Assembly (NCBI GenBank): GCA_030390025.1
Contig: CM059432.1
Span: 59,088,001-59,152,000, forward strand
DNA length: 64,000 nucleotides
Source: Squalus acanthias
Taxonomy: Eukaryota
Direction: 5' to 3'
Position 1 is the first letter of the stretch. Each line of letters opens with the position of its first letter. Positions 2,263-39,930 of the stretch are shown piece by piece. The position numbers and the translations under genes are program-made. The notes under the pieces were generated by a model. It was not told where the DNA came from, made no database searches, and was given only the letters and a program-made list of their open reading frames with translations.

Positions 2263-2993
2263 GGCCCAGAAATTGATCTCGCTCTGTTCCCGCGGGGGTA
2301 AGCCTTCCCCGCGATGTCTCACCTCGCTTATGCTTTTTCAGATCCAGCTCGCACGAACTTGATGTTCCAGACATCAGCTGTGCTGGGCTTGCGTATCCCA
2401 GCGGCGTAGTGAATTCGTGCGAGCTGTGGGATCACGTGACTCAGTTAGAGCCAATGGCAGCAGACCATCTTCCATTCATAAGTCTCACAGCATGGCTGTG
2501 AAATCTATGAATCTTACACCCCCCCAAAATAACAGCTAAACCTCAATTAAATTAAAAAAAAAAACCATCACATTAATAAAATAAGTATAGTTAATTAAAT
2601 TAACCATTTTAAATAAAAAATTAAATTTTTGAAAAAATTTAAAATCTTTTAAAAAGTTATAAAAATAAACTTACCTGTCTTTAAAGTCTATAAAAAAGAT
2701 ATACCTGTAAAAAAAAATTCAAAAAAATACTTAATTCACTACTTACCTTCTTAAAAGCGGGTCTTACTCCTCCTTTTTACATTTCCAAAATCTTCCCTAC
2801 TTACCTGCGCGTCCAAAGCATGAAGTGCACAGCGTGCGCGCACGCGATGCACTCAGGCCCCGCCCCCTTTTCAGTAGAGCAATTGCCGGTTTTCAGCGCA
2901 TGCACAGGGCATGCAGAAAACCGGCAATTGGGAGTGGGAATACGTGAGAGTACGCAGTGCGTACTCTCGCGTCCCGGGATCAATTTTCGGCCC
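2263..2993 (+). mobile_element. Harbinger-type MITE, hairpin family, copy A
   Basis: Imperfect 16-bp TIRs GGCCCAGAAATTGATC / GATCAATTTTCGGCCC. Closely similar to 5921-6664. Confidence 0.85.
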
Positions 2994-3129
2994 ATAGTCT
3001 TTAGCCTAGGAATCCTAAAATTACCAAAACTGTTTGTCAATTCAATCGTATAGGAATCTTTTCATGTTGAATTATATCAAGGCTAATTGCAGAAATCTTC
3101 AAATATATTAGCAGATTGATTTTAAAAAA

Positions 3130-5180
3130 CTATCTAAAACTACTAGCATTTATATTGTGCCTTTAATGTAGAAAAATATCCCAAGGTGTTTCACAAAGGT
3201 TTAGGGAAAAAACTGATCTGAGCTAAAGAAGGAGATATTAGGAATGGTGACCAAAAGCTTGGTTTAAGAGGTGGGTTTTAATTGGGTCTTAAAGGGGGAT
3301 AGGGGGTTGGAAATGCAAAGTTTAGGGAGGGAGTTCCAGAGAGTGGGCAGCTGAAGGCGGCCTGCCAATCATGTGGCGAACAGAGGGGGATGCATGAAAG
3401 GTTGGAGTCACGTAAACAAAGAGTTTCGGAGGTTTGCGGGGGGGGGGGGGGGGGTGGAATCGTAGCACACGAGAAGGTTACAGAGATAGGAAGGGGCGAG
3501 GCCAAGAAGGATTTAAACATAAGGTTGAGAATTTCAAAGTTGAGGTGTTGGAGGACCAGAAGCTAAAGTAGGCCAACGAGGACAGGGGTGATGGGTGAGC
3601 GGAACTTGGTGTAGGATAGCAGCGGACAACAGTATTTTGGATGAGCTAAAGTTTACAGAAGGAGGAACATGGGAGGCCAGCCTGGAGGATATTGGAATAG
3701 TTGTATCTAGAGATGGCAAACACGTGGATGAGGGTTTCAGCAGCAGATGGAGTGAAATAAGGCCAGAGGCGGACATGTTACAGAGGTGGAATTTGGCAGT
3801 CTTTGTGGCAGGGGGCAGGGTATGGGGTCAGAAACTCAGTTCAGTGTCAAATAGGACACCGAGGTTGCGAATAGTCTGATGACCTGAAACAATGGTTTGG
3901 GAGGAGGATGGAGTCAGTAGCAGAAGCCAAAGTCAACAGTTTTAGTCTTCCCAACATTTAGCTGCTAGAAATCACGGTTCATCCAGGACAGGATGTTCAA
4001 TAAGCAGCCTTACAGCACAAGGGCAGTGCAGGGGTCGAAAGGTGATAGAGAAGTAGCTATCAGTGCCATGAGCATACATGTGGAAGCTGTCTCCACGTCG
4101 GCAGATAATATCACCAAGGAGCAGCATGTAGATGAGGAAGAGGAGGGGGCTAAGGATTGATCCTTGAGGGTCTCCTGAGGTGAAGATGCGGTGGGGGGGG
4201 GGGAAAGAGAGGCCATTGTTGGAGATGCTCCGGTCACGATTGGATAGATAAGAGTTAAACCAAGTGACAGCCACCCCACTGAGCTGGACAACAGAGGAGC
4301 GGTGGTGGAGGAGGATGGTGTGTACGACCATGTCAAAGGCTGCAGAAAAATCGAGGAGGACAAGGAAGATAATGCACCATGGTCACAAACATAGAGAATG
4401 TCATTCGTGACTTTAGTTAGGTTGATTTGGTGCTGTGGGAGGCGCAGAAATCTGATTGGAAGGATTCAAACAGGGAGTTGCAGGAGAAATGGTTTCAGAT
4501 CTGGGAGGCAACAACACATTCAAGGACCTTGGAGAGGTTGGAGATGGGGTGGCATTTTGCAAGGTTAAAAGAATCAAGGGTAGGGTTTTTGAGGAGGGGA
4601 TGATGATGACAGTTTTGAAAGGAAGGGGACAATGTCTGAGAAGAGGAAATTATTTGTAATGTGAGAAAACATGGGGCCAGGAAAGGAAGTTACGTGGTCA
4701 GCAATTTAGTGGAATGGGGTCGAGGGAGCAGGAGGGGGATCTCATGAACAAGGTGAGCTTGGAAAGGGCATGGGTTAGATGGAAGAGAAACTAGAGAGAA
4801 TCGACAGTTCAGGGCTAGTGCAGTGGGGTCCTGGGGGGAGGTTTGGCTTGGTGAGCAAGGTGAAGGGGGAGAAGCTGCAGAGGCAGTTGAATAGATGGTT
4901 TCTATCTTGGCGACACAGATATCCATGAGCTCCTTACACTTGTTACAGGTGAGGGTGGAGGGGTCAAAGGTTTGGGAAGGGGGCAAGGGTTTGGTGAGGG
5001 GGCAAGGATTTGGGGAGGTGGTCAAAAGTGGAGAAAAGAGTTAGGAATCATCTTTTCTCTCCAGGATTATCCTTGGTGAGGGGGCAAGGATTTGGGGAGG
5101 TGGTCAAAAGTGGAGAAAAGAGTTAGGAATCATCTTTTCTCTCCAGGATTATCCTTGGGTAGTGAACGGTTTTGGAAAAG
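3130..5180 (-). mobile_element. Degraded L2-clade LINE
   Basis: RT remnants WFNSYLSNR and PQGSILSPLLFLIYM; L2-like 3' tail near 3145-3200. Confidence 0.75.
4991..5158 (+). repeat. Perfect 82-bp tandem duplication
   Basis: 4991-5072 equals 5073-5154, with TTGG microhomology at the junctions. Confidence 0.9.
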
Positions 5181-5615
5181 GAGTTCAGATTGATTTTTCT
5201 CTATAGTTACAGATACATTTTCACTTTTATTCGTTGATTATATTTAATATTTATAACTGGCAGAAAAATACATTCTAAAACATGCACACTCTGCAGTTAG
5301 TATTTTCAAAAATAATTTTATACGCCTGCCTTTATTAGACCATTTAATAACACAAAGTTCTGGTAGAATGATATGGCAATAGGGTAAATTTTCCACTTCT
5401 AGCATAAAGCCTCACCTGCTGGGAGTGCATATCAGGAAATCACACGTGAGCAGCCCTTCATTATTCTGTCAGGAAAATCAAAGGCTTCATGCAATTTTCA
5501 AACATGCACTTCTGGTAGTCATGGGTTGCAATTAATTTGCAAAAGTGGCAAATCTACCTTAAAATAACTACAGGGTTACTTATTGCACAACTCTGCCTCC
5601 TATACTATAAGAGTG

Positions 5616-5897
5616 TGACCCTCAAAGCCTCCTTGAAAAAGTACAACATCCCCACTGACACCTGGGAATCCCTGGCCCAAGACCGCACAAAGTGGAGGAG
5701 AAGCATCCGGAAGCAAGCGGAAGCAGCGCAAGGAGCGTACGTCAACCCAAGCACCCCACCCAGCCGCCCCTTCAACCACCGTCTGCCCCACCTGTGACAG
5801 AGACTGTAGGTCCCGCATTGGACTCAGTCACCTGAGAACTCATTTTTAATGTGGAAGCAAGTCATCCTCGGTTCCGAAGGACTGCCTAAGAAAAGAG
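5616..5897 (+). mobile_element. 5'-truncated RTE-clade LINE 3' end
   Basis: TLKASLKKYNIPTDTWESLAQDRTKWRR plus a C-terminal CPTC...H zinc-finger remnant. Flanked by direct repeat AAGAGTG (5609-5615 and 5898-5904). Confidence 0.75.
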
Positions 5898-5920
5898 AAG
5901 AGTGACCTGTAAGATACAAT

Positions 5921-6664
5921 GGCCCAAAAATTCGTGAGGAAGCCTTCGTGCGAGGGTAAGGCCTCCCCGCGATCTCTCACTGCGCGTTGGCTTTTTCAGT
6001 TCCAGCTCGCACGAACTTGATGTTCTGGACAGCTGCTGTGCTGGGCTTGCGTATCCCACCGGCGTAGTTAATTCGTGCGAGCTGTGGGATCACGTGACTC
6101 AGTTAGAGCCAATGGCAGCACACCATCTTCCATTCATAACTTTCACATAAGTGCTGTGAAAGTTATGAATACTATAGCTCCCCAAAAGAACCGCTAAACC
6201 TCAATTAAATTTTTTAAAAAAACCATCACATTAATAAAATAAGTATAGTTAAATAAATTAACCATTTTAAATAAAAAATTAAATTTTTGAAAAAATTTAA
6301 AATCTTTTAAAAAGTTATAAAAATAAACTTACCTGTCTTTAAAGTCTCTAAAAAAGATATACCTGTTAAAAAAAATTCAAAATAATACTTAATTCACTAC
6401 TTACCTTGTTAAAAGTGGGTCTTACTCCTCCTTTTTTTATGTGTAGAATCTTCCGTACTTACCTGCGCGTTGAAACCACTAAGTGCACAGCGTGCGCGCA
6501 GCCTGTAGCGCGCACGCGGTTCACCTAGGACCCGCCCCCTTTTCCATTCACCAAGTACCGGTTTTCAGCGCATGCGCAGTGCATGCAGAAAACCGACAAT
6601 TGGAGACAGAATACGCGAGAGTACGCAGTGCGTACTCTCGCGTAGCGGCACTAATTTTTGGACC
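5921..6664 (+). mobile_element. Harbinger-type MITE, hairpin family, copy B
   Basis: TIRs GGCCCAAAAATTCGTG / CACTAATTTTTGGACC; 3-bp TSD AAT on both sides. Confidence 0.9.
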
Positions 6665-6914
6665 AATAAATATAATTTCTTGACCGATATAATAAGTTTT
6701 TTTAATATTATTAAAATATTTGCAAACAATGGATCCAGTATTCTACCATCATAATAGAAACAAGTTAAAAAAAAGGATATTAATCATCTCAAATAATTTT
6801 ATCCACAATTCCCTTCAGCTATCACTATTAAATAAGTCTGGTTTGGAGTCAGCAGTTTCTTAGGAGCCAAAGAACACTTTTTATTTATATCTACTTTGCT
6901 AAAATTAGCAATTT

Positions 6915-7035
6915 CAGAGGAGATCGGGCGGGAAAGTGGAGTTGAGGCCGAAGATCAGCCATGATCTTATTGAATGGCAGAGCAGGCTCGAGGGACCGTA
7001 TGTCCGACTCCCGCTCCTAAATCTTATGTTCTTAA
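6915..7035 (+). mobile_element. Short CR1 3' end fragment
   Basis: gatcagccatgatcttattgaatggcagagcaggctcgagg...cttatgttctt, matching the 3' UTRs of the other CR1 copies. Confidence 0.75.
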
Positions 7036-7532
7036 ATCTCAACTATCCGAAGAAGTTGGTAATATGATGATGTCCTAGTTAAGCTTAGTAATGTCATGTC
7101 AGTGAAATAAAGAGGTAATACCTGGTTATGATGATGCCAGTGAAATAAGAATGTTTGATTCATCATGTAATTGACATGAAGAAGTCAGGATTGAGCATCT
7201 TGCCAATGTCCAAAAGGAATCACTGGTAATAAAACAGTTTAATGATGTCACTGTTGGATATGATGATTGTAGACATAAGACTTCAAGTGGGAGTTAAAAT
7301 CAGAGAAGGGATGGCCATATTAGTGACATTACCTATTTATTATTTGTTAGGATATAAATGACACTTTAAAATGATTTTCTTATTGCTTTTTCCTCCACTC
7401 CCCAACAAGAGTTAATAACAACAACCTGGATTTAGATAATCTGCCAAAGTGCTTCACAGAGACAAAAATAAGAAGTGCTGGGAAAAGGGGCTGAACACGT
7501 GATTAAAAAGGAAGGTTTTAAGGAGGCTTTTT

Positions 7533-9027
7533 GAAACATAGAAAAATAGGAGCAGGAGTAGGCCATTCGGCCCTTCGAGCCTGCTCTGCCATTCAATATG
7601 ATCATGGCTGACCCTCTATCTCAATACCATATTCCCGCTCTCTCCCCATACCCCTTGATGCCTTTTGTGTCTAGAAATCTATCTATCTCCTTCTTAAATA
7701 TATTCAGTGACTTGGCCTCCACAGCCTTCTGTGGTAGAGAATTCCACAGGTTCACCACCCTCTGAGTGAAGAAATTTCTCTTCATCTCAGTCCTAAATGT
7801 CCTACCCCGTATCCTGAGACTGTGATCCCTCGTTCTAGACACCCCCCAGCCAGGGGAAACATCCTCCCTGCATCCAGTCTGTCTAGCCCTGTCAGAATTT
7901 TATACGTTTCAATGAGATCCCCTCTCATTCTTCTAAACTCTAGTGAATACAGGCCTAGTCGACCCAATCTCTCCTCATACGACAGTCCTGCCATCCCAGG
8001 AATCAGTCTGGTGAACCTTCGCTGCACTCCCTCTCTATGGCAAGTATATCCTTTCTTTGGTAAGGAGACCAAAACTGCACACAGTACTCCAGGTGTGGTC
8101 TCACCAAGGCCCTGTACAATTGTAGTAAGACATCCTTGCTCCTGTACTCAAATCCTCTTACAATGAAGACCAACATACCATTTGCCTTTCTAACTGCTTG
8201 CTGCACCTGCATGTTTGCTTTCAGTGACTGGTGTACAAGGACACCCAGGTCCCTTTGTACATTAGTATTGCCCAATCTAGCACTATTTAAATAATACTCT
8301 ATCTTTCTGTTTTTCCTACCGAAGTGGATAACTTCACATTTATCCACATTATACTGCATCTGCCATGTATTTGCCCACTCACTCAACTTGTCTAAATTGC
8401 CTTGAAGCCTCTTTGCATCCTCCTCACAACTCACAATCCCACCTAGTTTCGTGTCGACAGCAAACTTGGAAATATTACATTTGGTTCCCTCATCCAAATC
8501 ATTGATATATATTGTGAATAGCTGGGGCCCAAGCACTGATCCCTGCGGTACCCCACTAGTCACCGCCTGCCACCCCGAAAAAGACCCATTTATTCCTACT
8601 CTCTGTTTCCTGTCTGTTAACCAATTTTCAATCCATGCCAGTATATTACCCCCAATCCCATGTGCTTTAATTTTGCACACTAACCTCTTATGTGGGACTT
8701 TATCAAAGGCCTTCTGAAAATCCAAATACACCACATCCACTGGTTCTCCCTTATCTATTCTACCAGTTACATCCTCAAAAAAACTCCAGTAGGTTTGTCA
8801 AACACGATTTCCCTTTCATAAATCCATGTTGACTTTGTCTAATCCCATTGATATTTTCTAAGTGTCCTGTTATCACATCCTTTATAATAGACTCTAGCAT
8901 TTTCCCTACTACTGATATTAGGCTAACCGGTCTGTAGTTCCCTGTTTTCTCTCTCCCTCCTTTTTTAAATAGTGGGGTTATATTTGCCACCCTCCAATCT
9001 GCAGGAACTGTTCCATAATCTATAGAA
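7533..9027 (-). mobile_element. 5'-truncated CR1 LINE (RT, frameshifted)
   Basis: ORFs with YLDFQKAFDKVPH, GVPQGSVLGP and RPHLEYCVQFW; TTCTATGT tail. Confidence 0.92.
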
Positions 9028-11956
9028 GAGGTAGCAAGGAATGTGGAGCCAATGATGTAGGTAAGAAAAGGGTTGAGGTCCTACAGACAGAGTTTCAGGA
9101 GTTAGAGAGGAATGTTAAAGAGCACAAGCTCAAAAGGTAGTAATTTCTGGATTACTCCCAGTGGTACATGGTAGTGAGTATAGGAGCAGTAAGATAAGAC
9201 AGGTTAACACGTGGCTGGAGAAATGGTGCAGGAGGGAGGGCTTCAGATTCCTGAGGTATTAGAACCAGTTCTGGGGCAGGAGGAACCTGTACAAGATGGG
9301 CAGATTACACTTCAACAGCGCTGTGATCAATGTCCTCGCAGGGCAGTTAACTAGTGCTATGGGGAAGGGTTTAAACTAATTTGGCTGGGGAAGGGGCACC
9401 AGGATGAAGCATCAGAGAGGAGATACAGGTTCAAGTAGTCACATGGGATTATGATATAGTGGCAATAAAGAAGATCTGGCTTAAACAAGGGGAAAAATGG
9501 TCACTTAATATTCCTGGCTACAATGTGTTTAGGAAAGATAGGGAAGGAAAAGAAGATACTGTTACAGCAACAATAACTTGTATTTATACAGCGCCTTTAA
9601 TATAGTAACACATCCCAAGGCGCTAGAACTAGAAAAGGATGATATACTTGAGGGTTCAAAGCCAGACCTAGTTGGTTAGAATTAAGGAACAATAGATGAG
9701 CTATTATGTTGCTGGGTGTATACTATAGGCCACCAAATAGTGGGAAGCAGATAGAGCAGCACACTTGCAGGAAAATTGCAGAAAGATGCAAGAACTTTAG
9801 AGTAGTGAGAATGGGGAACTTCAAATATCCTAACATAGACTTGGAAAATAACATTGTAAAGAGCAAAGAGGAGGAGGAATTTCTGAAATGTGTACAAGAG
9901 AATTTTCTTCATCAGGATGTTTCCAGCCCAAAGAGGAAGGAAGCAGTGCTGGATCTAGTTCTGGGGAATGGAGTAGGGCATGTTTCAGTGGGAGAGCATT
10001 TGGGAAATAGTGATCACAATATCATTAGATTTAGAGTAGTTATGGAAAAGGACAAGGAATAATCAAATGTGAAAATATTCAACTGGAGGAGGGCTAATTT
10101 CAGTGAGTTGAAAAGGGATCTGGTCTAGGTGGATCAGAATCAAAGATTGGGAGGCCTTCAAAGAGGAGACAGTTCGGGTACAGACTAGACACATTCCCAT
10201 GAGGGGGAAAAGAAGTGCATCCAAAGCTAGAACTTCTTGGATAACTAAAAATATAGAGATTAAAATAAAACAGAAAAAGGAGCTTACGTCAGGTTCATAA
10301 TTTAGTAGCTGAATACAAAAAAATACAGCGGAGAACTGAAAAAGGAAATAAGAGGAGCAAGAGAGTATATGAGAATAGATTCGCAGCTAACATAAAAGAG
10401 AAACCAAAAGTCTTTTATAAACATATAAAAAGTAAAAAGGTAGTCAAAGGAAGAGTGGGGCCGATTAGGGACCAAAAAGGAGATGAATACTTTGCATCTG
10501 TCCACTAAAGAAGAGGATGCTGCCAATATCACAGTAAAGGAGGATGTAGTAGAGAAATTGGATAGGATAAAAAGATATAAAGAGGAGGTAGTAAAAGGAT
10601 AGCAGCGCTCAAACTAGAAAAGTCACCCGGTCCGAATGGGATGTGTCCTAAGTTGCTGTGGGAAACAAAGGTGGAAATTGCGGAGGCTCTGGCCACAATC
10701 TTCCAATCCTCCTTAGATATGGGAGTGGTGCCAGAGGACTGGAGGATAACAAATGTTACACACCTATTCAAAAAAGGGCAGTGGGATAAACCCGGCAATT
10801 ACAGGCCAATCAGCCAAACATTGGTGGTAGTGAAACTTTTAGAGACATTAATCCAGTACTAAATTAATTGGCACTTGGAAAAATATGGGTTAATAAATGA
10901 AAGCCAGCATGGATTTGTTAAAGGTAAATTGTGTTTGACTAACTTGATTGAGTTCTTTGATGAAGTAGCGGTGAGGGTGGATGAGGATAGTTCGGTTGAT
11001 GTTGTGTATATGGACTTTCAAAAGGCGTTTGAGAAAGTACCACATAATAGACTTGTTAGAAAAATTGAAGCCCATGGGATTAAAGGGGCAGCGGCTGCAT
11101 GGATACAAAATTGCCGATGGGACAGTAAGCAGACACTAGTGGAGAACAGTTGTTTTTCCAGACTGGAGGGAAGTGTGCAGTGGTATACCGCAGGGGTTGG
11201 TGTTGGGACAACTGCTCTTTTTGATATATATTAATGACCTGGGCTTGGATATACAGCCCATAATTTCAAAGTTTGCAGATGACACGAAACTCAGAAATGT
11301 AGTAAACAGTGAGGAGTATAGCAACAGACTTTAGGAGGACATAGACAGACTGGTGAAATGGGCAGACACACGGCAAATGAAATTTATTGCAAAGAAGTGT
11401 GAAGTGATTAATTTTGGTAGGAAGAATGAGGACAGTCAAGACAAACTAAATGGTATAATTTTAAAGAGGGTGCAGGAACAGAGTGACCTGTGGGTGTACA
11501 TACACAAGCCTTTGAAGGTGGGAGGACAAGTTGAGAAGGCTGTTAAAAAGGCATACGGGACGCTTGGCTTTATAAATAGAGGCATAGATTAAGCAAGGAA
11601 GTTATGCTAAACCTTTATAAAACACTGATTCGGCCCCAGCTGGAGTATTGTGGCCGTTTCTGGGCACCACACTGTAGGAAAGATGTCAAGGCCCTAGAGA
11701 GAGTATCGACGAAATTTACTAGAATGGTACCAGACTTCACTTATCTGGAGAGACTGGAGTTGTTCTCCTTAGAGCAGAGAAGGTAAGGGGAGATTTGATA
11801 GAGGTGTTGAAAATCTTGAAAGGTTTTGATAGAGTAAATAAGGAGAAACAGATTCCAGTGGAGAAGGGTTAGTAACCAGAGGACACAGATTTAAAGTAAT
11901 TGGCAAATAAACCAGAGGCGACATGAGAGGAAAAAAATTACACAGCGAGTTGTTAT

Positions 11957-18540: not shown

Positions 18541-18544
18541 GCGT

Positions 18545-20079: not shown

Positions 20080-23000
20080 GGGGGGAGGATTTGAACCTTA
20101 CCCACCCGGCAGGCCTGAGTTAAGATGCCGTTGGGGTCCGATTGATGCCATCGGGCCCTGATTAGCATATTTGAGAAGAAACCCATCAGCTTCAGCCGGC
20201 TGCTCAGAAGAACAGGTTAAAATTGGTCAGGTGGCTTTGCAGCGGGTAAGTAACCTGGGGCATTTTAACTGCCCACCCGTCCGATTTCATAGTTCCAATG
20301 GTATGCTGTATAATGAGTGCTCGAGCGCAGTGCCTGCTGCCCGCCCAGTTACCACAGCAAACCAAAATCGAGCCCTGTGGATTTAGCTCCCACACATCAG
20401 GCCATCAATGAGAAGGGAGCAGCACTAAATCCTTTAAATCAACTGTGGACCTGAATTAGGAGCCAGTTAAGCACCGGAGATAATACTGGGAAAGAGAAGA
20501 TAGCTGACTAATTAACAGATTACTGTAGATTTGGATATTATTGACAGAAAAGTCAGGAGATGCATAACCTTCCGCAAGGACTCAGGGAGAGAAGGCAGCA
20601 CTTGAAGGGATTGATGGCCATGTCTTCCTCCCCAGAGGTGCCGGAGCATCAGGCATAGGAGGAGATAGGTTAATGCTAGCAATACCAATCGCATACCAGT
20701 CTCCAATGTGACTAATTCATATGCAGAGCCTCCCAATGGATAACCCTGGGATGTCTAGGGCCAACAGAATCCCAGCAGTAAAACACTGCAGCCAGACAGC
20801 ACACTTACTCTTATTACAGATTAATTATTTTGAAGGAGTGGTAGGTTAGGTATCACACAGCAGAAACAACGTACAAGCACCAAGGGACATGACTGTGGCA
20901 AAGTCACTGACAGTTCATACAATCAACTTATTCAAGAAATTCTATGTACCTGATTTGTACATTCTGCTGAGAATGTCTTTGTAATTGTGCAGAATAATGC
21001 AGCACAACATCAAATGATGGGCATTGATGGTGATGGAGGAAGTGCTGAGGACGATGTCGCTGAAGGTATTTTGGGCCAGTTTCTTTGGTACTTCTAAATG
21101 AATCTGGCACATCAGTATTCCAGGCTGAACTAATATTTCTGGAACTACTTCCTTGTTGTCAATGTTTGTGTCTTGCTCTGGCCTTGATTTCAGATTGTCT
21201 TTCTTCTCCTACATGGTTAGACCCTTTTATATAGCAAAGTTGTGAAGCATGCAGCAGACATTGATGACCTTGAAAAAGCTGGGGAATTGGGGATATACTG
21301 TAAGGTGCCCCCAATTTGGTGAGACATTGGAAGCACCATTTCAAAATATCAATGATATGCTGCATACTGATCTTTCTGTTTGCATGGGGTTGTTGCATCT
21401 GCTCTCTGATGTCCATGGCTGGTATTAGGGTAGTGGCCAGTACTGAAAAGTGTAGCTTTGCTCTCCCAAGAACCATCCTTGCAGTCTGCCTACCCCATCA
21501 AATAAGGGTAACACAGATCATTGTTGCAAAATAAATGCATCACATAAGCTGTGAAGGAAATGGGCATTGACCTCCATAATTCTGCTCTGGTAGTCCAGAC
21601 CTGCTCGATATTCAGTTCACTCCTTTCTGTTCATAGATGCTGCAACAATATGGGCAGGGGCCCAAATGATTACATGGGTGCAACCAATCACATCCTCTGT
21701 GCTTGTGGAAAGCCAGCAGTGCATTGGAATTGTATTGCTCGCACACATTGCTGTTGTTGGTTAGTGGCAAAAGTAATAAACTCTATGGGGGAGAAATTCA
21801 GTATCGCCCCATTTGGGGCGCAATTATCGGCCGGGCGCAAAGATTAGCGCCTGGCGCTAATTATCGCCACCGACTGCAAACTTGACTTTTATCGCCCCTG
21901 GAGGTGATTGGAGCGCTAAATCAGGCGCTTCACACCTGTCTTAAGGCGCAAAGGCCGAGGAGCGAGGCGCTACCTCAGAGCGCTGGCGAAGCTCATGTAA
22001 TGTCAGTCAGCAATGGAACACACACACAATGGCATGGGCCAGGTCTTAAAGGGGATGGTTAATCTCACTTTCCATCCACATCCTGCTAATTGCAGCCTTG
22101 AATCTCGGCCTGGAGAGACCTGCACATCAAATCTGCTGGAAAGAACAATGGAGAGTACCAGGCAAAGAGCTCAGAGTGCAGCCCCCACAGTCTCTTCTAA
22201 ATCGATACAAGGAATGGCAAATCAAAATGAACCTGCAAAGTGCTGCTCAGTACCCAAAACTCCTTCACACAACGTTGAAACTCTCCAGAAGTCTCTCTCT
22301 CTCTCAGAATGCGTAGTTCAAAAATGGCACCAACAATAAAAGGCAGGAAGCGGTCACCTTTAAATAGCGCTCCCCCTTACCCTTCATGACTGCAGAACGC
22401 TCCACTCAAACTGTCGTTGCTAGCGTCAGGCGGTAAGGCAGGGGGCGCCACTCAATATCCGCTCCGGGGCGATACTGGGGCGTTGCGCACTCGACTGATG
22501 TCACGATCTGCCGGCGCAGGAGATCGTGGCGGTAGTGTTTAGCGCCGCCGCAAAATGTCTAGTTAATTTCACGAGCGGCGCAAACTTCACTGCGCCTGGG
22601 CGCTAGATGCTTTGCGCCCTATTAGCGCCCTCTTAAGGCGCTAACGGGAGGCGCAACCAACTGAATTTTTCCCCCTTTGGCTCTCCTGAATAAAGCATCA
22701 GTCAGCTCCTTGGTCTATCTGTGGACAGTGAGCTGGGTAACACTGTAGATGTCTCCAGTGCTAGCCTGGAAGGAACTGGAAGCTTTAAAATTGAGGGTCA
22801 CAGTGACCTTGACTATCATTGGCAGTACTGTCTGGAAAGTTGGTTGGAGGTCTTCTTGTAATAGATGGCACAGCTCAATCACTGACTGCTTGCTAAACCA
22901 TAGCCTCCTAAGGCCATGCTCTTCACTAAATTTCAGGTAGGTGTTCCTGGGATAGTACAATCAATGGGTGGCACAGAAGCAGGCCTTTGGTGCCAACTGA

Positions 23001-27799: not shown

Positions 27800-28181
27800 C
27801 TAGAAATCCTGCGACTACTGCGAGCCCTTCTTGCCGGCTGTTTTGCCACCACCGGATTAGAGCCGGATTTCTTTGGCAAGAACATGGCCAGGACGCCGCC
27901 CTGTGTGCTGGTGACACCATCCAGCAGCTTGCTGAGCTCCTCGTCATTGCGGATGGTGAGCTGCAAGTGGCAGGGGATGACGGATGCCCTGGGCCGCGTT
28001 GCCCGCCAGCTCCAGGTTCTCGGCCCTCAGGCACTCGAGGACGGCAGCCAAGTAGACTGGGTTCTCAGCCCCAGCGCGCTCGACATAATTACCTTTGTGG
28101 AGCAGGCGGTGAACACAGCCGGCTGGGAACTGAAGGCTGGACTGAGTTCAACGTGTCTTGGACTTTGCACGGGCTTTACCT
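27800..28181 (-). pseudogene. Histone H2A.X-like pseudogene with C-terminus SQDF
   Basis: GKARAKSKTR*...[17 protein letters not shown]...VYLAAVLE...LELAGNAA...[20 protein letters not shown]...QGGVL...LPKK, then after a frameshift [14 protein letters not shown]. Has stops and indels; no ATG. Confidence 0.85.
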
Positions 28182-28929: not shown

Positions 28930-29600
28930 CTCCTACCTCAGGTGGTGATTCAATGCGCTCTCCCAAGGTACTCACTCAGACTCAACCTGACAGTCTGCAC
29001 CTTAGCAACCTGCTCGGCCTTGAGCTGAGCTACATGACCCACATCCAGTCCATCACAAAGACGCAACATAACCAACCCACTGAACTCTGAACTATGCCTT
29101 TGTATCCCCAGTTTTATTTCTCCAGCAATCTCCTCACTGACTTCTCAAGCGCTACCTTACATGAGCTCCACCTCATCCAGAACTCTGCTGCTTGTATCCT
29201 ATCCCACACACATATCTCCCTATCCTTGTTGCTCCGCATCCCCCAGTGCATTCGTTTTAAAATCCCTGTTCTGGTTTTCAGATCCCTCATAGGTTTTCTT
29301 CTCCCTAAGTATGCAATCTTCTCCAACCATATATCCCCTCATACATCTTATGCTATTCCAACTAGGGTCTGCACTATCACTACATCTTTTTGCTCCATGA
29401 CTGATGGTAGAGATTTTAGGCATCATACATCTGCACTTTGAAATTCTCTTCCTAAATCCCTCTGCTTCTCTCCTTACCTTCAAAATCCATATGCAAAGCT
29501 ACCGATTTTGCTTTTGACCCTGCTCAAGCTTCTCTCCTTCCTATTCGGGTCCCCTACCCTCCATAATAAGCTTGGGTTATCTTGTTATGTGAAGCACACA
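28930..29600 (+). mobile_element. Degraded L2 3' region
   Basis: LHLIQNSAACILS...IRFKIPVLVFRSL, a typical L2 C-terminal remnant. Confidence 0.6.
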
Positions 29601-30894
29601 ATAAAAGTGCAAAATATTACAGTTCTATCACAAATATAAACACATTTCCTGTAACAGATGTGTTGAAATTGTGCTGCGTGATATTGGTACTTAGCTCATT
29701 GACACATTTGCATGTTTTCCTCTGTCTTATTAATGAAGTTTAACTTCTTCATTAAAATCACCGAAGAAACTTCACGCAAATGTGCTAATTCAATTATTAA
29801 AACAACACATCATAATTCCAATACATATATTAAAAACTACTGATTAAAGAATCAATAAGAGGCGAAGGACAGAATTTATACAGTGGAAACACTATAATAT
29901 TGCAAAGGATAGCCTCATATTTCTGTTTAGTTCATGGATTATTATAGTGCTTGAAACATAATAAGGGATAAAAAAAAATGTCCGAGATTAAACAAGAGAT
30001 AAAGGAATTAAAAATTCTTGGTGTGCTTTGCACCATCTAATGTGAACCTGTGGGTTGCGTTCCTGCTCCAGAATGTGCCCTCTGTGCTGAATCTTTCACT
30101 AACGAGAAACCCACACTATCTTCTTTGTAAATTTGAAGCCTTATGTTTGCACTACAAGCACAATTTGTATTTCTACTCCATACCCTGCTGACCTGACATT
30201 TCAAAATTGTTCAGAAGTGTGGTGACACAGTGTGCTGAGCGTCATCTAATTAAAGCTCTTCCACAGGCTCAAGCACCGCTGCAATCAGTTTCCAAGCTGG
30301 CCCAATCGGAGAGAGGCAAAACATAGGGGGGAGTCACTCTTGATTATCTTACAGTGGTCAGTTATGAGGACATTGGTAGTGGGTCGAGTCCCCATCCTCT
30401 TGACTGCAAGGTGTAAAATAAGCAGTGAAAAAATTCCAGCAAAAACACAGGAAAACGTAGTCAGAATATACCCCATATGGGGGGGGAAAAAAAGCAAAAA
30501 AAAAATTGAAATAATGGCCAGAATTGGAGGATGTATTTTAAATTACTGACTGAATTCAGAGAAGCGTAGAACAGGTCAAAATTTATGGGACCATTGGAAT
30601 AAAGCCAAATTATGTCATTATAAAGCATTTATTTTCTGCTTCACCAAAAGAGATTTAAGAAACACCGCAGCATTCGAAACCCACGAGTGTCACAAGCTGC
30701 CTGGTAAACTCTGAAGCAAAATGTTTTAGGTGGAAATTCAACTGCCTGCACTTGTGAATATCCTATTTGTGCAACATTTGACTGTTCATGTAATCCTTCA
30801 TTATCACACTCAAAGGAAATGCTAAATGTTTAGACAGTTTAGACACACACAAAAAGTGAAAATTTGCATAGCATAAAATATTTAGAAGATAAGG

Positions 30895-32875
30895 ACATAA
30901 GAATGAGGAGCAGAGTCGGACATACAGCCCTTCGAGCCTGCTCAGTCATTCAATAAGATCATGGCTGATCTTTGACTTCAACTCCACTTTCCCACCCGAT
31001 CCCCATATCCCTTGACTCCCCTAGAATCCAAAAATCTATCTATCTCAGCCTTGAATATACTCAACGATTCAGCAACCACAGCCCTTTGGGGTAGAGAATT
31101 CCAAAGATTCACAACCATCTGAGTGAAGAAATTCATTTCAGTCTTAAATGGCCGACCCCTCATCCTGAGACTATGCCCCCTAGTTCTAGACTTTTCAGCC
31201 AGGGGAAACAACCTCTCAGTATCTACCCTGTCAATCCCCCTCAGAATCTAATATGTTTCAATTAGATCGCCTCTCATTCTTCTACACTCCAGAGAGTATT
31301 GGCCCAATCTACTCGATCTCTCCTGTAGGACAACCCTCTCATCCCAGGAATCAATCTAGTGAACCTTCATTGCGCTGCCTCGAAGGCAAGTATATCCTTC
31401 CTTAGATAAGAAGTGCACAGTACTCCAGGTGTCGTCTTACCAAAGCCCTGTACAATTGTAGCAAGACTTCCTTACTCTTGTACTCCAACCCCCCTTGCAA
31501 TAAATACCAACATGCCATTTGCCTTCCTAATCGCTTGCTGTACCTGCATGCTAACTCTCTGTGCTTCCTGTACAAGGACACCTAAATCTCTCTGAACACC
31601 AACATTTAAAAGTTTCTCACCATTTAAAAAATATTTTTTTCTCTACTTCTTACCAAAGTGAATAACCTCACATTTCCCCACATTATACTCCATCTGCCAG
31701 CTTATTGCCCACTCATTTAACCTGTCTATATCCCTTTGCAGGCTCTTTGTGTCCTCCTCACAGCTTACTTTCCCACCTAGCTTTGTATCATCAGCAAACT
31801 TGGATACCTTATGTTCAGTCCCTACAACATAGATTATAAATAGCTGAGGCCCAAGACCTGATCCTTGCGGCACCCCACGAGTTACAGCCTACCAACCGGA
31901 AAATGACCCGTTTATCCCTACTCTCCGTTTTCTGTCCATTAACCAATCCTCTATCCATGCTAATATATTACCCCAACCCCGTGAGCCCTTATCTTGCATA
32001 ACAACCTTTTATGTGGTACCTTATCGAATGCCTTTCGGAAATCCAAATATACTACATTCACTGGTTCCCCTTTATCTACCTTGCTAGTTACATCCTCAAA
32101 AAACTCTCGTAAAATTGTAAAACACAATTTCCCTTTCATAAAAAGCATGTTGACTCTACCTAATCATATTATGATTTTCTAAGTGCCCTGTTACCACTGC
32201 CTTAATAATGGAGCCCAGCATTTTCCCGATGACTGATGTCAGGCTAACTGGCCTGTAGTTCCCTATTTTCTCTCTCCCTCCTTTCTTGAATAGCAGGGTT
32301 ACATTTGCTACCTTCCAATCTGCTGGGACCATTGTAGAATCTGGGGAATTTTGGAAGATCACAATCAATGCATCCACTATCTCTGCAGCTACCTGTTTTA
32401 GAATCCTAGGATGTAGGCCATCAGGTCCACGAGAATTGTCGACTTTTAGTCCCATTAGTTTCTTAAGTCCTTTTTCTCTACTGATGTTAATTACTTAAAG
32501 CTCCTCAATCTCATTAGCCCCTTGGTTCCCCACTAGTTTTGGTATGCTTTTTGTGTCTTCCACTGTGAAGACTGATACAAAATATTTGTTGAATGTCACT
32601 GCCATTTCTTTATTCCCCATTATAATTTCTCCTTTCTCAGCCTCTAAGGGACCAACGCTTACTTTTGCTACTCTCTTCCTTTTTACATACATGTAGAAGT
32701 TCTTGCAATCTGTTTTTATATTTCTTACTAGTTTACTCTCATTCTATTTTCTCCATTTTTATCAATTCTTTGGTCATCCTTTGCTGGTTTCTAAAGCTCT
32801 CCCAATCCTCAGGCTTACTATTATTCTTCACAACATTATAAGTCTCTTCTTTTAATCTAATACTATCCTTAACTT
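30895..32875 (-). mobile_element. 5'-truncated CR1 LINE, fragmented ORF2
   Basis: Several RT fragments (GNYRPVSLTS, YLDFRKAFDKVPH, FADD) and a CR1 3' UTR. Confidence 0.9.
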
Positions 32876-33824
32876 CACTTACTGCAAAGCATGGCAAGGA
32901 ACCCTTACTGCATGCAGACTGGTGCAGGTCTCAGTCCTGGCAGCAAGAAGGTGCATTCCCCAGCAGTGGTACAACAAACATCCCCCCTCAACAAATCACT
33001 TGTGGGACATTTACCAATTAGATTCGGGGATGCATAAACTGTGCGTCGGGCTGAGGAAATACAAGAAGGTGCAGACGCCATTCCCGCTTGATGCACTCTA
33101 ACCAACTCAAATCACGAACCCCCTCATTACTCATTTCAGTTTGAAATGCAACCTATTTTGATCCTGATTATTATTAAAATAAAATAAACAGAGCCTTGAA
33201 TGTCCACATCATGCTGTTCACCAATGTCAGCACTTAATACTTCCCAGTGTCGACAGGGGTTCTGATGAAGGATCTCTGCCAAAATGTTTACCTGTCTTTT
33301 CCCTTTTTGAGATGCTGATGGCCCTGCTGTATATCTCCAGTATTTTCTGGCTTTATTTTTGAGTGCTCTCTTGTAAAATAGCACGAGGAGAGATTTTTGT
33401 GTCTGTCTGCCTGCTGAGATTAGCAGTTTTCTTGAGAATCTCAAGAGTCAAACCGCACAAAGAGAGATGTGTAAGTGGAGATGTGCAAGTGATTTATATA
33501 ATGTAAATGACTTTTGTACTTTTAAAAAAGTAATAAAAGGCATGCACACCATTGGAGGTGTAAAAACTGAGCTAACGGTACTTCAGATTCGTTAACAGCA
33601 TTTTGTAACCTGCGTATTCATAATTTAACAGAGATTGTCTCCCCCTCCCATAAAAGCTCACCAGGTAAAACTACAACAAAAGCTTCCGATTGTCAGAGCT
33701 GTTTAAGTTTAATATTTTTCTACGGTAACATTTACTGCGATGTTTACCCTGGTAAAACCTTCTAATCTTTATAGGTAAAATTCATGTTCAAATGTGGGAG
33801 TTGTTTAACTCAGATGCTGAGAAA

Positions 33825-33965
33825 AAGCAGATGGAGTAGAATTTCCGCAGGGGTTCTCCCAATCGTCTGCTGTAACATTAACAGCCACTTACGTCGTTTC
33901 CCTGGGGTTTCTGCCGATGTTAAGGCAGGAGATCTGAAGAACCCACGCGGACATTTTACACTGTT
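33825..33965. mobile_element. Possible ~135-bp miniature inverted-repeat element
   Basis: gtagaatttccgcagggg-ttct at the left pairs imperfectly with agaacccacgcggacattttac at the right. Confidence 0.4.
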
Positions 33966-34736
33966 ATCTCTGTAAAGCAATTGCTGCTTAAATGGGCCTA
34001 AAATGTATTTTTAAATCACATTGTTTTAATGTTGGAAATGGTTTCCCGATGACATTATTAAACTTACAATACCCACAAGTTTTCATTGCTTCCCAAAGTA
34101 ATCTTAATTTGAAAAGAATCAATTCAAATGCTATTATTAAGAAACAATAAAGTAGAACATTGTAGTTGTTAATACAGAGCTATATTCTGCTGGCCATACT
34201 GGCTGAGTGTTAGATCCAACTCTACTCAGGTAATACACCAGCTTTGCACAGAATAGGGGCTGACTTCTTATTTTTTGAGAGTGTAATTTGGAATGAACTT
34301 TAGAATTAAAAGAAAATTGTACAGTTTCACAGCTTTAAATTCTCCATTTTGAGAGTGTTGTTTATTTTATATGAGAATTCCTGTTTGTTGCTTTGTAAGT
34401 TTAAAATTAATCAGATTGTTATAATTGATAAATTAAATTACAATTGAGACAGACATGAAAATATAACTCAAACAAAACATAGTAATAAAAATGTGGAAAA
34501 TGAATGACCCATGTACCTACTTTTTCAGGTATTCAAGGCCTTCAAAACTGGCTTCCATGTTGCTACGCAAACTGAAATCTCATCAGGAGCATAATAACGC
34601 CATGCACACTAAAGTTTTAAGATAAATGATCAATTTGGGAAGGGAATGAAAGTGAAAAAAAAATAATAGTAAATAAAAAGTCAGTGAATTGTGCATTTTT
34701 TGTTTGCAGAGTTGAACTGAGCAGTAGCATACATGC

Positions 34737-34831
34737 CTGAAGAAAGGAATCGCTATGACAGTTTCGTAATATCTCCATGTGGCACCAAGATCACTCCGGT
34801 TGAGGTTCGTGGCGTAAAATCTCCATGCAGT
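34737..34831 (-). CDS. KCNQ3: KCNQ3 coding exon, helix A / IQ-like calmodulin-binding region (exon 8 equivalent); GC donor
   Basis: 95 nt, cag|ACT...TTC AG|gcatgt. Translates [31 protein letters not shown](R). Ends in phase 2, matching the next exon. Confidence 0.9.
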
Positions 34832-35181
34832 CTGGATCAAAACAAAACATGGAAAGGAAGATTTTACAAAAGATAATCTCAATCAATATTGTTTTCTACA
34901 CAAGTTCTCCCTCATAAACTTTAGAATTTAATGCAATGTGCCTTTAACCTTGCCAGTCAATCTCCCATGGGATTGCACACAGCAGGTTGGGGGACACGCA
35001 GGTTTGAAATGGAGCACACACCAAATATAAACTGGAAGAACACAGTCACATGAAGAGCTCATCTGGGGAAAACCCATGAGCAGAAGTGTCAGGAGTCAAA
35101 GAGCATTGCCGACAGTTCAGAGGGAGTACACATCCCACTTTCAGCATCGAGTTAGGATATTTTGTCTGGCTAAAATATATT

Positions 35182-35939
35182 GGCCCAGATATTCCGATCC
35201 CTACGGGTGGGTACGCGCTGTGTACCCGCCCGTAGGGACATCGGAAATGCCGGTTTCAGGCATGAACAGCGCATGCGCTGAAAACCGGCATTTCCGATCT
35301 GTCAAGAATCCTCTTGACAGATCGGACGCCTGCCCTAGAGAAGGGCCTCTGCGGGCGGATAGTTCCGCTTTATGGAGACCCTCCGCCCGCAGAAAACCCT
35401 TACAATTCGTACGCCTGGTAAAAGCAGGCATAAGGCCTGCTTTTACCAGGATAAGAGTTGAAAAAAAAGTTTAAAAAAAATGTTTCCACTGGTTTATCAT
35501 TTAAAAATACTTTAAAAAAGGTAAGTTTATTTTTAGCCCTGTAAAAAACTTTAATTATTTTTTCAAAAAATTAAATTTTTGTTTAAAATACTTAATTTAT
35601 TGTAATTTCAAGTCATTTTAAAACATGTGATTTAAAAAAAAAATTATTTAAAGTTTTACTATGTTTTTTCATTGATCTCCATTCATATATTTGACAGGTC
35701 TTCCTGTCAAATGTATGAAGGGAGAGTCCCTTCAGTGATTGGCTCCCCATGGCCCACGTGATCCCAGGGACGCTGCGAACTACATGCGCCCCTGGGATAC
35801 GTGAGCCCTGCGCACTTCAAGTTTGGAGAGGCCCAGGAGCGGAGGTGTGTGCGTCCCGGGAGCCCTCAGGTAAGGGCGTAGATTTTTCCAGATCGCAGGC
35901 CTCCACCCGCAGGAGGCCTGCGATCGGAAAATACGGGCC
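35182..35939 (-). mobile_element. Harbinger-type MITE, hairpin family, copy C (reverse orientation, divergent)
   Basis: TIRs GGCCCAGATATTCCGATC / GATCGGAAAATACGGGCC; TSD ATT. The AT core (aggtaagtttatttt...caaaaaattaaattttt) and cacgtgatccca match the reverse complement of copies A and B. Confidence 0.88.
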
Positions 35940-36939
35940 ATTACCTTTACTCCTCTGGTCAGACAGTGTCATCGCCTGTATGTTTAGATATTGAGGCAGG
36001 AAAAATACACTGCAGCTCCAGAGGAGCCTGGACCAAATGGTAGCTCTGTGGAATTGCAGTCCTGGCACTAGGTACTGAGCGGAAGATAGACAAAATGTAA
36101 TACAATTTTGTCCAGTTCTTTCAAAACAAACATTTCTAAATGATAATTCAGAAAAACAATTTTTTTTGGATTCATACATGGAAACAACAGTAACCAATGC
36201 TGGAGCAGACAAACGCCTTCTGAGGAGGAAGGGAGGGAGCAGTGGCTTCTGGAAATTGTAGTCCTGGGAATGCCGACGGGTAAATTTAATACAAATCTTA
36301 CAAGGACATTTTCTCCAAGGAGGATTCAGCGGGAGACTGGGATTCCCAGAGGTCTAGCAATTTCCATTGTACTACTTGTGGTGGCGGGTAGAGTTATTGG
36401 CGTCAAGTTTATTGGTAAGTTTGTGATTTCTTTTTGTTAATTTTTCACGTTTGTTGTATGATAAGTTTTACTTTTAGGAGTATGTAGTTGGATGAGTGAG
36501 GAGATGTCATAACAGCTATATAATCGGAGAATTATTTTCCTGGAATGTTATTAGGAAATGTATTTTTAGTAAAATGTGACTGTGGAGAAAATTGAAATTG
36601 GGAGAAAGATTTTGTGCAATATGATTGGTGAATAACAAAAGTAGAAAATAAGCAACTAAAGAGGAGAAAATGCAGACGGTTAGCCAATGAGAAAGAAGGA
36701 ACTGATACACAGACTCAATGGTCACAGCGTAAATGACAGGTACAAAAATATGTAGTTTTTCTAATTTTCCAACAGGATTTCATGAAGAAAGCTGTAAAAA
36801 TTTCAGTTTGCCTTCTAGGATCCAGTAAGATTCCCCCTTTTCTTTGACTCCAATTTTATTGGCCCTGGAGGAATGGTTTTCACCGTGCACCAGCTATCAG
36901 TTGGGAGAATGAGTTGCTCTGGGCTCTGGTCTGCTCTAG

Positions 36940-37441
36940 GGGGGAAAAATTGAGTCGCGCCCCAGCACACCGAAAAAATTAGCACCCCCCACAGCCGAAA
37001 TTCACCGGTAGCGCCCCAAGAGGGAAGCGGGGTGCTACTGGAAGCGCCCCGCCTCCCTCTTGGGGCGCTGCAAGTGAATATCACGTCGCGCCGCGGTACT
37101 GCAGACCTTATTAAAGGGGAGGGGCCTAGCATAGCATGACCCGGGGCCCAGCTGGGCCACCAGGGATCGGAATGCCGGCAAAAGAGCCCAGCACTCAAGA
37201 GAAGTGCCGGGCTCACGGAGCGTAGCCGGCACTCCGCCGGGGGGGCTGGTCAGGAGGCCGGGGACGGCAACGGGGGCAGGTGCTGGCAGGCGGCCAGCAA
37301 CAAAAATGGCCACCCGGCACCTTCCCTTTAATTAGCGCCGCCCGTAAGTCAGGGGGCGCTACCGAAGATCGCAGCCGGGACGCGAGCAGGGCGCTGCGCA
37401 CGGCGATGACAGGAGCCGCAAAGCAACCAAATTTTTAGGCC
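36940..37441. mobile_element. ~500-bp CpG-rich Harbinger-type MITE
   Basis: Ends GGGGGAAAAATTGAGT / ACCAAATTTTTAGGCC; flanks TAG/TAT; GCGC-rich body. Confidence 0.65.
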
Positions 37442-37682
37442 TATGTCTGTTCTCACTGCTACTCCATCAATGGGCAGTCGTGCTAAGCAGCTATGCCAGT
37501 TCTTCCCATTTCCCACAGGTGGAGTAGGCCACCCCAATCAGGGACCCATCTGGGGGCTCCAGAGGTTGGATGCGTGAGCTGAAACTTTGACTCTCATCCC
37601 TGCTTTTTATCTCATCAAAAGCATCACAGACCAAACATTTGTTTGTCAGGTCTGAAAGCACTGGAGTGCACCAGTCCACCTC

Positions 37683-37760
37683 TGTGTGCCTGTACCTGTA
37701 TGTGTGTGTGTGTGTGTGTCTGTATGTGTGTCTGTGCCTGTATATGTCTGTGTGTTTGCA
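37683..37760 (+). repeat. Imperfect (TG)n microsatellite
   Basis: tgtatgtgtgtgtgtgtgtgtgtctgtatgtgtgtctgtg... Confidence 0.9.
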
Positions 37761-39389
37761 TGCAATAACTGGAGTATAGATCAAATTAAGTCAAGTCTTA
37801 CATACCAGTTGTTAGAAAAGTTTAAATTGCAGTGAAGTTCAGTCCAATTTGAAGAATATTAAATACTAAAGGCCACCGAGTTTTTGTGGGTCCCTATATT
37901 TTTGTAACTTTTCATGTTGATGAAATTGTTACACAAAGTAAGATTGTTAATACAAGTTTAGAATCAGAGTACTGTGCTTGTATCATCACTGAAGTGCTGG
38001 CAAACCAGTATGTCCAACAGATAAATACTGCCACCATCAGGATATTAGTGGTACTACTGCAAAATAAAAAAAGATTAAAAATTGCAAATGCTAGAAATCT
38101 GAAATAAAAACAAAAAACACAGCCGGTAAGGTAGCAACTTTAGAGAAAAGACAGGTTGTGATACTTTTGATGAAGGGTACACCCCATAATGTCATAACCT
38201 GTCTTTCACTTTTCAGTTGGTACTACTGCAGCTCTGGAAAACAAATCTGTGATATTCAATGGTTGTGAATTTATTTTAAAATACAAAAATGAAGATTAAG
38301 AAGCCTAGAACTCAGAAATAGTCAAATCTAACAGTAGAATCTTCCTATTTGCCTGCTGTAAACACTGAATCCTGTACTACACCAGAGGTGCAACCAGGTA
38401 TAAAGAGTTGTGCGGCGGAGCATCAGAATAACTCTGAGGGTTCGATTCGAACTCCCCCGGCCTGGCAGAAACGACAAGGAGCAGGAGTGCTCCTCCAGGC
38501 CCCGTAAGGATACTTGGGCCTCCCCTGCTCCAGACTTTCTCCTCTTCCCTCGGCCAGGATTCCCTGCCTGGAGCATTACCTTGTGCCGGGGACTGTACTC
38601 CTGGCTCCCCGGCGGTGGCCTCCTGCTGCCCGATTTTAAAGGGCAGGCTGCAGCTACTTTGCTGTTTAGGTCGGGAAAATGGCGAGCAGCACGCTAATGA
38701 GGCCCAGCCGCTAAAATCAGCCGAGTCGGCTTGCTGTCGCTCGCCTTGCCGCATTCCCGCCCTGGAGTTGGAGTCAGATTTTTTTTTTTTAAATGGGGGT
38801 TACACATCCCTCAACGGTTGCATCTATATCCTGCACGTCCCAACATGTGCTGCAATTGGTATTTGTACCCAGTGGATAGAGCTCATGGCACCTTCGGAGC
38901 AGCACAACAGCCATGGCAATCAAAAAGCTCAAAATTGTTCAAATATCCCTTGAAAGCTGCGTTTGATTTTTGTGATTTCTCCACCTCTAACATTGACGTT
39001 TATGCTCCTGACCAAATTTAACACCAAACTCTCTGTTGGGTGGAGATGTGTCTGGATGTTGTGGAGGGCACTGTGGAGTGGAGGGTGGAAGCAAAAACTG
39101 TTCAGTTTATGCTGGAACAGAGTTTTGTGCGAGATCTGGGAGGTGGTGGAAAACTCATTTTGAAACATATGAAACACAACAAGCTGTTGCCCTTTTGTGA
39201 AACCAGCCCAGTGTGGTGATGCCCTTCTTATTCCACACTGTGGAGCAATTTGCAGTAAGTGCCTCTGAGAGATAATTACTAAACCATAGTGGAAAGATGG
39301 ATGAAAGACCCAGGAGCACCTCCCGCTTGATGTGAAAACCTGGAACTTGCAATCTGTCAAGAACCTTCTTCCCTGGGAAAAGGTCATCC

Positions 39390-39930
39390 GTGGGTGGAGA
39401 GTTGGGCTATTTGCCCAACTTCTGCCCAGTGAATGCCCGTAAGGCCTGCTTTTACCAGCAAAAGAGTTTTAAAAAACATAAAAATAAAATGTTATCAATC
39501 ATTTATACATTAAAAATCCTGTACAATAAGGCAATTTTATTTTTGGCCCCGATAAAACATGTAAAAAAAAAATTCAAAAAATTTAATTTTTGTTTTAAAT
39601 ATTTAATTAAAGGCCATTTTTATTTATTTGATGCGTAGATGTATTTTTTGGGGTATCCCCATTCATGCTTATGGGGTTTCCGTAGATACGGAATCCCCAT
39701 AAGCATGAATGGAGACTCCCTTCTTTCATTCGTTGGGCCGGCCCATGTGATCCCAGGGACGCTTGTGAACCGCCTTCACCCCTGGGATACGTGGACCTCC
39801 GCCCGCAGGTACCTGGGCAGGCCCAGGACCGCGAGTCTCTGTACCTCCCGGACCACCAGGTACGCGGGCATTTTATTTGCGGATCGGAGGCATTTCCCCA
39901 CGGGAAGCCTCTGACTGCAAATTCAGGCCC
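39390..39930 (-). mobile_element. Harbinger-type MITE, hairpin family, copy D (one end missing)
   Basis: taaggcctgcttttaccag, AT core and catgtgatcccagggacgct are shared with copy C; terminus AAATTCAGGCCC. Confidence 0.75.

Follow-up and report, generated by a model that had tools for sequence, protein, structure and literature searches.

How can both arms of a DNA hairpin be replaced and still pair? The question is raised by a 64,000-nucleotide stretch of the Squalus acanthias genome (assembly GCA_030390025.1, contig CM059432.1, positions 59,088,001 to 59,152,000), hereafter called the window. It holds four copies, A to D, of a ~750-bp gene-less miniature inverted-repeat transposable element (MITE) of Harbinger type (PHIS superfamily), which is very abundant in this 3.7-Gb genome. 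An initial annotation described a hairpin at the same place in all four copies, judged the inner stems to be unrelated, and proposed either that structure is selected or that template switching rewrites the arms. We find that a single lineage replaced itself stepwise from D through C to A/B, and that both arms change together only in that amplifying lineage.

One ladder of homologous stems

From 269 matches to the element in 1.48 Mb of sequence, we chose the 204 that cover profile positions 120-480, sorted them manually into 24 groups (3-33 copies each), and derived a majority consensus for every group; the order of changes is based on these consensuses together with pattern counts. The 204 copies form one ladder that leads from D (old) via C to A/B (young), with stepwise intermediates between. 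Terminal branches shorten along it, from ~0.07-0.1 for D to 0.03 for C and 0.004 for A/B, and identity to the best other genomic copies is 77-83% for D, 91-94% for C and 98.6-99.2% for B (30 best other matches).

A, B, C and D can be aligned end to end, and H3, the hairpin first described, alters few bases at a time along the ladder. Column-by-column alignment and the continuous intermediates in other copies thus contradict the view that the inner stems are unrelated or replaced, and the intermediate copies rule out non-homologous stems. The subterminal stem, which had likewise been taken to have exchanged its sequence, keeps an invariant pair of GTAC words in all stages. A ladder assembled as a mosaic of two parents is also ruled out, because the middle stages hold up to 106 states absent from both D and B.

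Pairing is kept up only in the amplifying lineage

The covariation across subfamily consensuses that selected structure would entail is significant, with 21 compensated pairs observed versus 1.5 expected (null maximum 8 in 5000). In 19 real copies chosen to span the stages, 91.6% of H3 is paired, and both sides have changed in 9 of its 17 pairs. Its covariation score of 0.348 compares with 0.114 for shuffled controls, a test that the relatedness of the rows inflates, and with at most 0.107 for slid controls. Between stages, paired sites change at 0.026 per step versus 0.118 for unpaired sites of the GC-rich regions, or ~4.5-fold more slowly. Mismatched stem sites, at 0.19 per step, change faster than this background, and 60 of their 85 changes restore pairing.

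Inserted copies behave otherwise. Rates in stems and surroundings are alike (0.022 versus 0.017 at G/C, 0.015 versus 0.013 at A/T), 27 of 63 changes at mismatched sites restore pairing, which is about the level from transitions alone, and ongoing arm correction among inserted B, C and D copies is represented by only two compensated doubles, one of them at a CpG. These copies lose pairing neutrally. Rewriting of the arms during ordinary replication is therefore too rare, since inserted copies mutate in their stems as fast as beside them.

Might the stems instead be selected in a structured RNA made from the element? Promoter-like and donor-like words are visible in the sequence. According to PMC8794818, however, compensation in RNA is led by wobble pairs, and here new mismatches comprise 16 G·T and 20 A·C (8:8 in the left arm, 8:12 in the right), with no strand or wobble bias, and new pairs arose by transversion in 25 of 36 cases and by transition in 11. 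Hairpins also appear and vanish with swaps of the element ends, and an Rfam scan of the whole 64-kb window returned 0 matches. On the mismatch and transition counts, selection on RNA or on a one-strand structure, as had been suggested, is not favoured, and we regard a structured RNA as very improbable.

Two routes back to symmetry

Symmetry was regained both in one multi-base jump and base by base; the counts for the jump, the gain of an inverted repeat and the mixed-arm classes were made by eye. The jump affects the A-type right arm of H3. Among the first 100 of 4,184 matches, 69 loci carry this arm, 18 in the old form and 51 corrected at three of four neighbouring bases, with 0 intermediates; the two groups are separated by only two other fixed columns in 22 copies. 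After perfection, a new H3 mismatch spread to 20 of the 51 loci (among the matches listed). In addition, locus L249 carries an exact in-place inversion of the inner H3 stem, and locus L117 is a mixed-arm chimera.

The gradual route is seen in a new inverted repeat overlapping hairpin H2. It arose in three single-base steps, all of which were amplified; the successive forms account for 90, 3, 5 and 1 of the first 100 of 2,997 matches. The gain followed one path: none of the 100 matches listed shows an alternative order, and one is an unrelated variant. At an older H3 transition, two mixed-arm classes, with 5 and 8 loci, occur in a listing of 100 of 635 matches, so mismatched forms do amplify.

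The three-base jump and the L249 inversion are signatures of template switching as described in PMC8794818, a process that can make and maintain stems (PMC8794818). Template switching, one of the two processes suggested at the outset, is hence upheld as one source of symmetry. In yeast, the repair of breaks turns quasi-palindromes into perfect ones and is 1000-fold more mutagenic than replication (bioRxiv 10.1101/2023.08.09.552703). Gap repair is the likely setting for both arm copying and end swaps (PMC3814204; bioRxiv 10.1101/2023.08.09.552703).

Such repair could conceivably explain everything, if symmetry outside the invariant cores described below had no job and error-prone gap repair both mutated the element and copied arm onto arm, so that palindromes perpetuated themselves. 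The jump without intermediates, the inversion in L249, mixed-arm chimeras, the documented capacities of template switching, and a C>G share of 41% among between-stage changes versus 19% at the copy level would all be consistent with this origin. Yet neutral copying predicts the background rate and stem sites are ~4.5-fold slower, the middle mismatch of the new inverted repeat was fixed first, unlike the product of a contiguous copying tract, and the C>G excess is equally explained by selection or bias for GC. We consider a purely mutational origin rather improbable.

Copies and hairpins in the window

The four related elements initially annotated are real, and A, B and C each have both terminal inverted repeats (TIRs). 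For D, the start at 39930 stands, and the other end is moved from 39390 to ~39324, with the right TIR absent. The pairing counts reported earlier are also correct (A 15/18, B 16/16, C 21/23, D 25/26), as are the subterminal stems of B (16/16) and of C, where 2 positions are unpaired among 17 checked, one of them at the loop. The quoted stems fold better than 200 shuffles, with z from -3.3 (A) to -9.5 (D). The features are as follows (TSD, target site duplication).

2263-2993, plus strand: MITE copy A (young stage); both TIRs present; flanks AAT / ATA, a discordant 3-bp duplication
2474-2512, plus strand: H3 in A; outer dyad invariant, inner stem with 3 mismatches; the state before the three-base jump
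2880-2930, plus strand: H7 in A
5921-6664, plus strand: MITE copy B (youngest stage); both TIRs; TSD AAT/AAT
6003-6084, plus strand: newly born 13-bp inverted repeat in B, arms 6003-6015 and 6072-6084; built up by single steps; overlaps and competes with H2
6050-6096, plus strand: H2 in B; invariant core ends in a CACGTG word
6132-6170, plus strand: H3 in B; perfect 16-bp stem
6205-6440, plus strand: AT-rich core of B, without folding signal
6479-6528, plus strand: H5b in B; exists only from stage S12 onward
6552-6602, plus strand: H7 in B; GCATG word twice, 11 bp apart
6612-6644, plus strand: H8 in B, the subterminal stem; GTAC word twice, 11 bp apart; common to the helper's transposase-side end
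35182-35939, minus strand: MITE copy C (middle stage); both TIRs; TSD ATT/ATT on the plus strand
35199-35237, minus strand: H8 in C, the subterminal stem
35240-35325, minus strand: H7 and H6 in C
35414-35450, minus strand: H4 in C; near-invariant from S23 to S13, decayed later
35676-35725, minus strand: H3 in C
35751-35808, minus strand: H2 in C
35885-35931, minus strand: H1 in C; gone from stage S12 onward
39324-39930, minus strand: MITE copy D (old stage); right end and right TIR missing
39651-39720, minus strand: H3 in D; outer dyad halves 10 bp further apart than in C

The AT-rich core of B resembles the helper's transposase-side non-coding end (a profile-level match), and its minus strand contains what we take to be candidate splice-donor-like words.

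Invariant cores and their spacing

Every lasting hairpin has an invariant core, and only the letters beside the cores turn over. The outer dyad of H3 shows 2 changes in 240 site-steps and the inner stem 32 in 420, such that inner letters change at 0.076 per step versus 0.067 in the neighbouring spacer. Shape is thus not kept without sequence, contrary to the original proposal, and the conserved sequence motifs that Myb binding predicts are present in every lasting hairpin. Anchor spacings in the GC-rich parts are steady within 1-2 bp, and both H7 and H8 are made up of a self-palindromic word that recurs 11 bp further along. Three larger spacing changes have been fixed (175/176 to 165, 43 to 33 and 169 to 159), each of ~10 bp or about one helical turn, whereas at copy level only 40 of 144 deletions measure 9-11 bp. 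From the core spacing, the 11-bp word repeats and the helical-turn deletions, we infer that proteins act on duplex DNA.

We give roughly even credence to the view that the element carries dyad sites for proteins, arrayed in phase along duplex DNA, and that some of the symmetry comes from copying between arms. The mirror-symmetric stretches of the GC-rich ends would be putative docking sites for dimeric proteins of the helper, the coding element that shares these ends. Multi-base jumps would be template switches, likely during gap repair of excision sites, and single steps would be favoured by selection, since one shifting protein preference should act alike on the two halves of a dyad. On this view, the fold-back shapes that can be drawn might be mostly a by-product of dyad symmetry and arm-to-arm copying.

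Several points weigh against this proposal. H3 and H2 occur in none of the 13 helper copies examined, where the one match is a separate MITE, and are therefore not needed by those helpers. H3 pairs unbroken up to 26 bp, longer than one half-site requires, and the predicted Myb recognition helix is nearly unchanged across 10 helper copies, which weakens the idea of a shifting preference. H1, H4, H5 and H6 were lost outright at S13-S12, so none of these is indispensable. The phase argument comprises three events (~p 0.02), and the assignment of helper Myb sites to the cores is putative. Because helices were picked for pairing in 3 or more stages, their apparent rate is lowered; many of the stage consensuses come from 3-7 copies, which biases conservation figures upward; and 30 of 66 restorations are reversions, possibly noise or side branches.

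Alternatively, folding back might itself be useful, with cruciforms in supercoiled DNA or single-stranded hairpins in gap repair aiding excision or re-copying, and pairing selected whatever the letters. Inner H3 letters as free as spacer yet highly paired would be expected in that case, as would the fast and mostly restorative change at mismatched stem sites and the stepwise growth of the new inverted repeat, and the two GC-rich ends fold much more strongly than shuffled sequence (z -3.9 to -19). However, forms with 2-3 mismatches amplified widely, a mismatch spread after H3 had been perfected, four hairpins were lost outright, and the newborn inverted repeat competes with H2. A ten-base phase is not expected of single strands either. 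We think this explanation rather less likely than not.

Family, target sites and helper

A two-word motif of the MITE has 18,227 exact matches in the genome (control, 0), which is a lower bound on copy number. TIRs were found in 30 of the 30 best B-type loci (98.6-100% identical to B) in addition to the window copies, and no transposase or Myb tblastn match lies inside any MITE copy matched. A family search for DDE_Tnp_4 gave 63,886 candidate places, of which 150 were scored; the right part of the MITE is present in 27 of 30 fetched loci (at least 79 bits), and one further match, in L142, is a separate MITE piece. The loci include a helper with the same TIRs, a DDE_Tnp_4 open reading frame (ORF; E 1.9e-43) and a Myb/SANT exon. 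In L171 the helper spans ~4.5 kb and encodes a 383-aa transposase, with the Myb/SANT exon convergent to it; PF13873 was detected in 2 of 2 helper exons scanned (E 4.5e-14 and 4.2e-13). The Harbinger-type reading of the MITE is borne out by this helper.

As the MITE lineage changed, its ends continued to match those of helpers of equal age. At the level of stage consensuses, the first 40 bp of A match the Myb-side end of helper L173 at 100% identity, S01, S05 and S08 reach best identities of 94-98% to like-age helpers in their last ~110 bp, and terminal spacers track helpers of similar age. From S12 on, ~240 bp of the right end matches the helper end, a large import at S13-S12 that is excluded from per-site rates. 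No older helper for S13-S23, and none with H2/H3, was found in the 1.48 Mb examined.

Among 58 young full-length copies, the 3-bp flanks are identical in 37, including non-AWT pairs such as GAT, TCT and CTT, and AWT stands on both sides in 44 and TWA in none. Readings of the flanks as lacking a TSD or as products of a tyrosine recombinase were dropped, given these non-AWT pairs and the DDE helper. Flanks are discordant in 21 of the 58 (for example at window 2260-2262 / 2994-2996), with 11 AAT/ATT swaps, and this is far commoner than 1-2% divergence yields. The discordance fits a donor-derived overhang that may have been brought into the new site (compare PMC4561436).

The PHIS superfamily groups PIF/Harbinger and Pangu (PMC4482050), both of which, as described there, share with this family a 3-bp TSD, short TIRs starting with G, and a helper of ~4.5 kb that encodes a DDE transposase and carries a second ORF. 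PIF/Harbinger has a Myb/SANT second ORF, as here, but a TWA TSD; Pangu has an ANT TSD, which fits AWT, and TIRs starting with AG or GG, which also fit, but no Myb/SANT was detected in its second ORF in that account (PMC4482050). Because its TSD is Pangu-like and its second ORF PIF/Harbinger-like, the element is filed, on its sequence features, as PHIS and strictly in neither group.

Rate of the amplifying lineage

Between the D and B consensuses, 329 of 722 sites differ, a divergence of 0.70 substitutions per site when corrected and 1.72 when summed over steps. D copies lie only 0.044-0.068 from neighbours or consensus, although they are the best matches and their age is therefore biased downward; with the 0.10 branch of the window D copy, the ratio of lineage to inserted-copy rates is still 7-fold. 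The amplifying lineage thus outpaces inserted copies at least 7-fold, and probably 10- to 20-fold. A clock is rejected by relative-rate counts made on real copies, with 145 changes for window B versus 41 for window C when D is the outgroup. Medians in the H2-H3 block are 31 versus 8, and of four comparisons made in the AT core, two are significant.

Helpers also show uneven rates. Among helpers L171-L190, comparing the youngest copy with the four oldest gives synonymous distances of 0.63-0.74 for Myb exon 1 (L171:4553-4804, minus strand) and 0.12-0.14 for the transposase. All 12 comparisons of transposase residues 1-60 give a non-synonymous distance above the synonymous one. The contrast could reflect silencing escape, local hypermutation or module swapping; uniform hypermutation is a poor simple fit to the two synonymous distances.

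Other repeats

Loci L181, L183-L185 and L187-L189 belong to a second abundant Harbinger-type helper family, with 386-409-aa frames and ends unlike those of this MITE. Decayed Harbinger-type transposase pieces in the window (58278-59265, 22676-22942 and 21146-21783, all minus strand) are closer to that family. Several MITE copies lie ~1 kb apart in L074-L079 (G000:C1 ~3.28 Mb), and the cluster itself is duplicated ~8 kb further. In L177, a stretch at ~4500-8700 with what we take to be integrase-like frames, presumably a retroelement, interrupts or adjoins a helper copy. The window also holds GC-rich elements outside this MITE family at ~36940-37420, with a 40-bp inverted repeat at 36997-37082, and at 38477-38608, and an exact 86-bp tandem duplication (4991-5076 and 5073-5158).

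Relation to known systems

For Harbinger3_DR and Harbinger3N_DR of zebrafish, a Myb-like protein is said to bind short palindromic subterminal motifs, and the TSD is reportedly CWG, unlike AWT here. mPing and other Tourist-like MITEs are also non-autonomous PIF/Harbinger elements, and their staggered cleavage of a 3-bp TSD would explain the discordant pairs in our copies; the account in PMC4561436 describes no covarying internal palindromes or long subfamily ladder, unlike what is seen here. Harbinger-N12A_XT of Xenopus tropicalis, a 342-bp vertebrate Harbinger MITE, has internal palindromic repeats as well (PMC12676858), a likeness drawn from its description only; the main text uses neither "hairpin" nor "secondary structure". 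Template-switch mutation of quasi-palindromes gives multi-base arm perfection and in-place inversions, as here (PMC8794818; bioRxiv 2023.08.09.552703); in this family such mutation occurs mainly in the transposing lineage, hardly ever in inserted copies, and alongside stepwise gains.

Internal palindromes in a vertebrate Harbinger MITE (PMC12676858) and template switching are therefore already known. Added here are the contrast in rate between active and inserted copies, the counts of jumps versus steps, and the 10-bp phase. In the literature searched, a scope outside which lie most subscription papers, Repbase and Dfam, neither covarying dyads nor a fast ladder turned up for the PHIS superfamily.

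Implications

The usual picture of DNA transposons is a burst of copies from one template, which then decay at the neutral rate of the host. Here, the intermediates of a single lineage survive as a dated series spanning at least 0.7 substitutions per site. Tentatively, and as a possibility short of an even chance, this vertebrate cut-and-paste system may run a continuous ladder like that of influenza or L1. The active lineages of MITE and helper would then outpace host DNA 10- to 40-fold, driven by mutagenic gap repair coupled to transposition and by an arms race involving the element ends and the Myb gene. The helically phased symmetric array would be rebuilt as quickly as it breaks down, and thousands of parked copies would preserve nearly all the steps. 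Strong covariation in a repeat family need not imply a structured RNA. The ladder makes two things countable on real sequences: the compensatory crossing of mismatched states, and whether transposition mutates the element.

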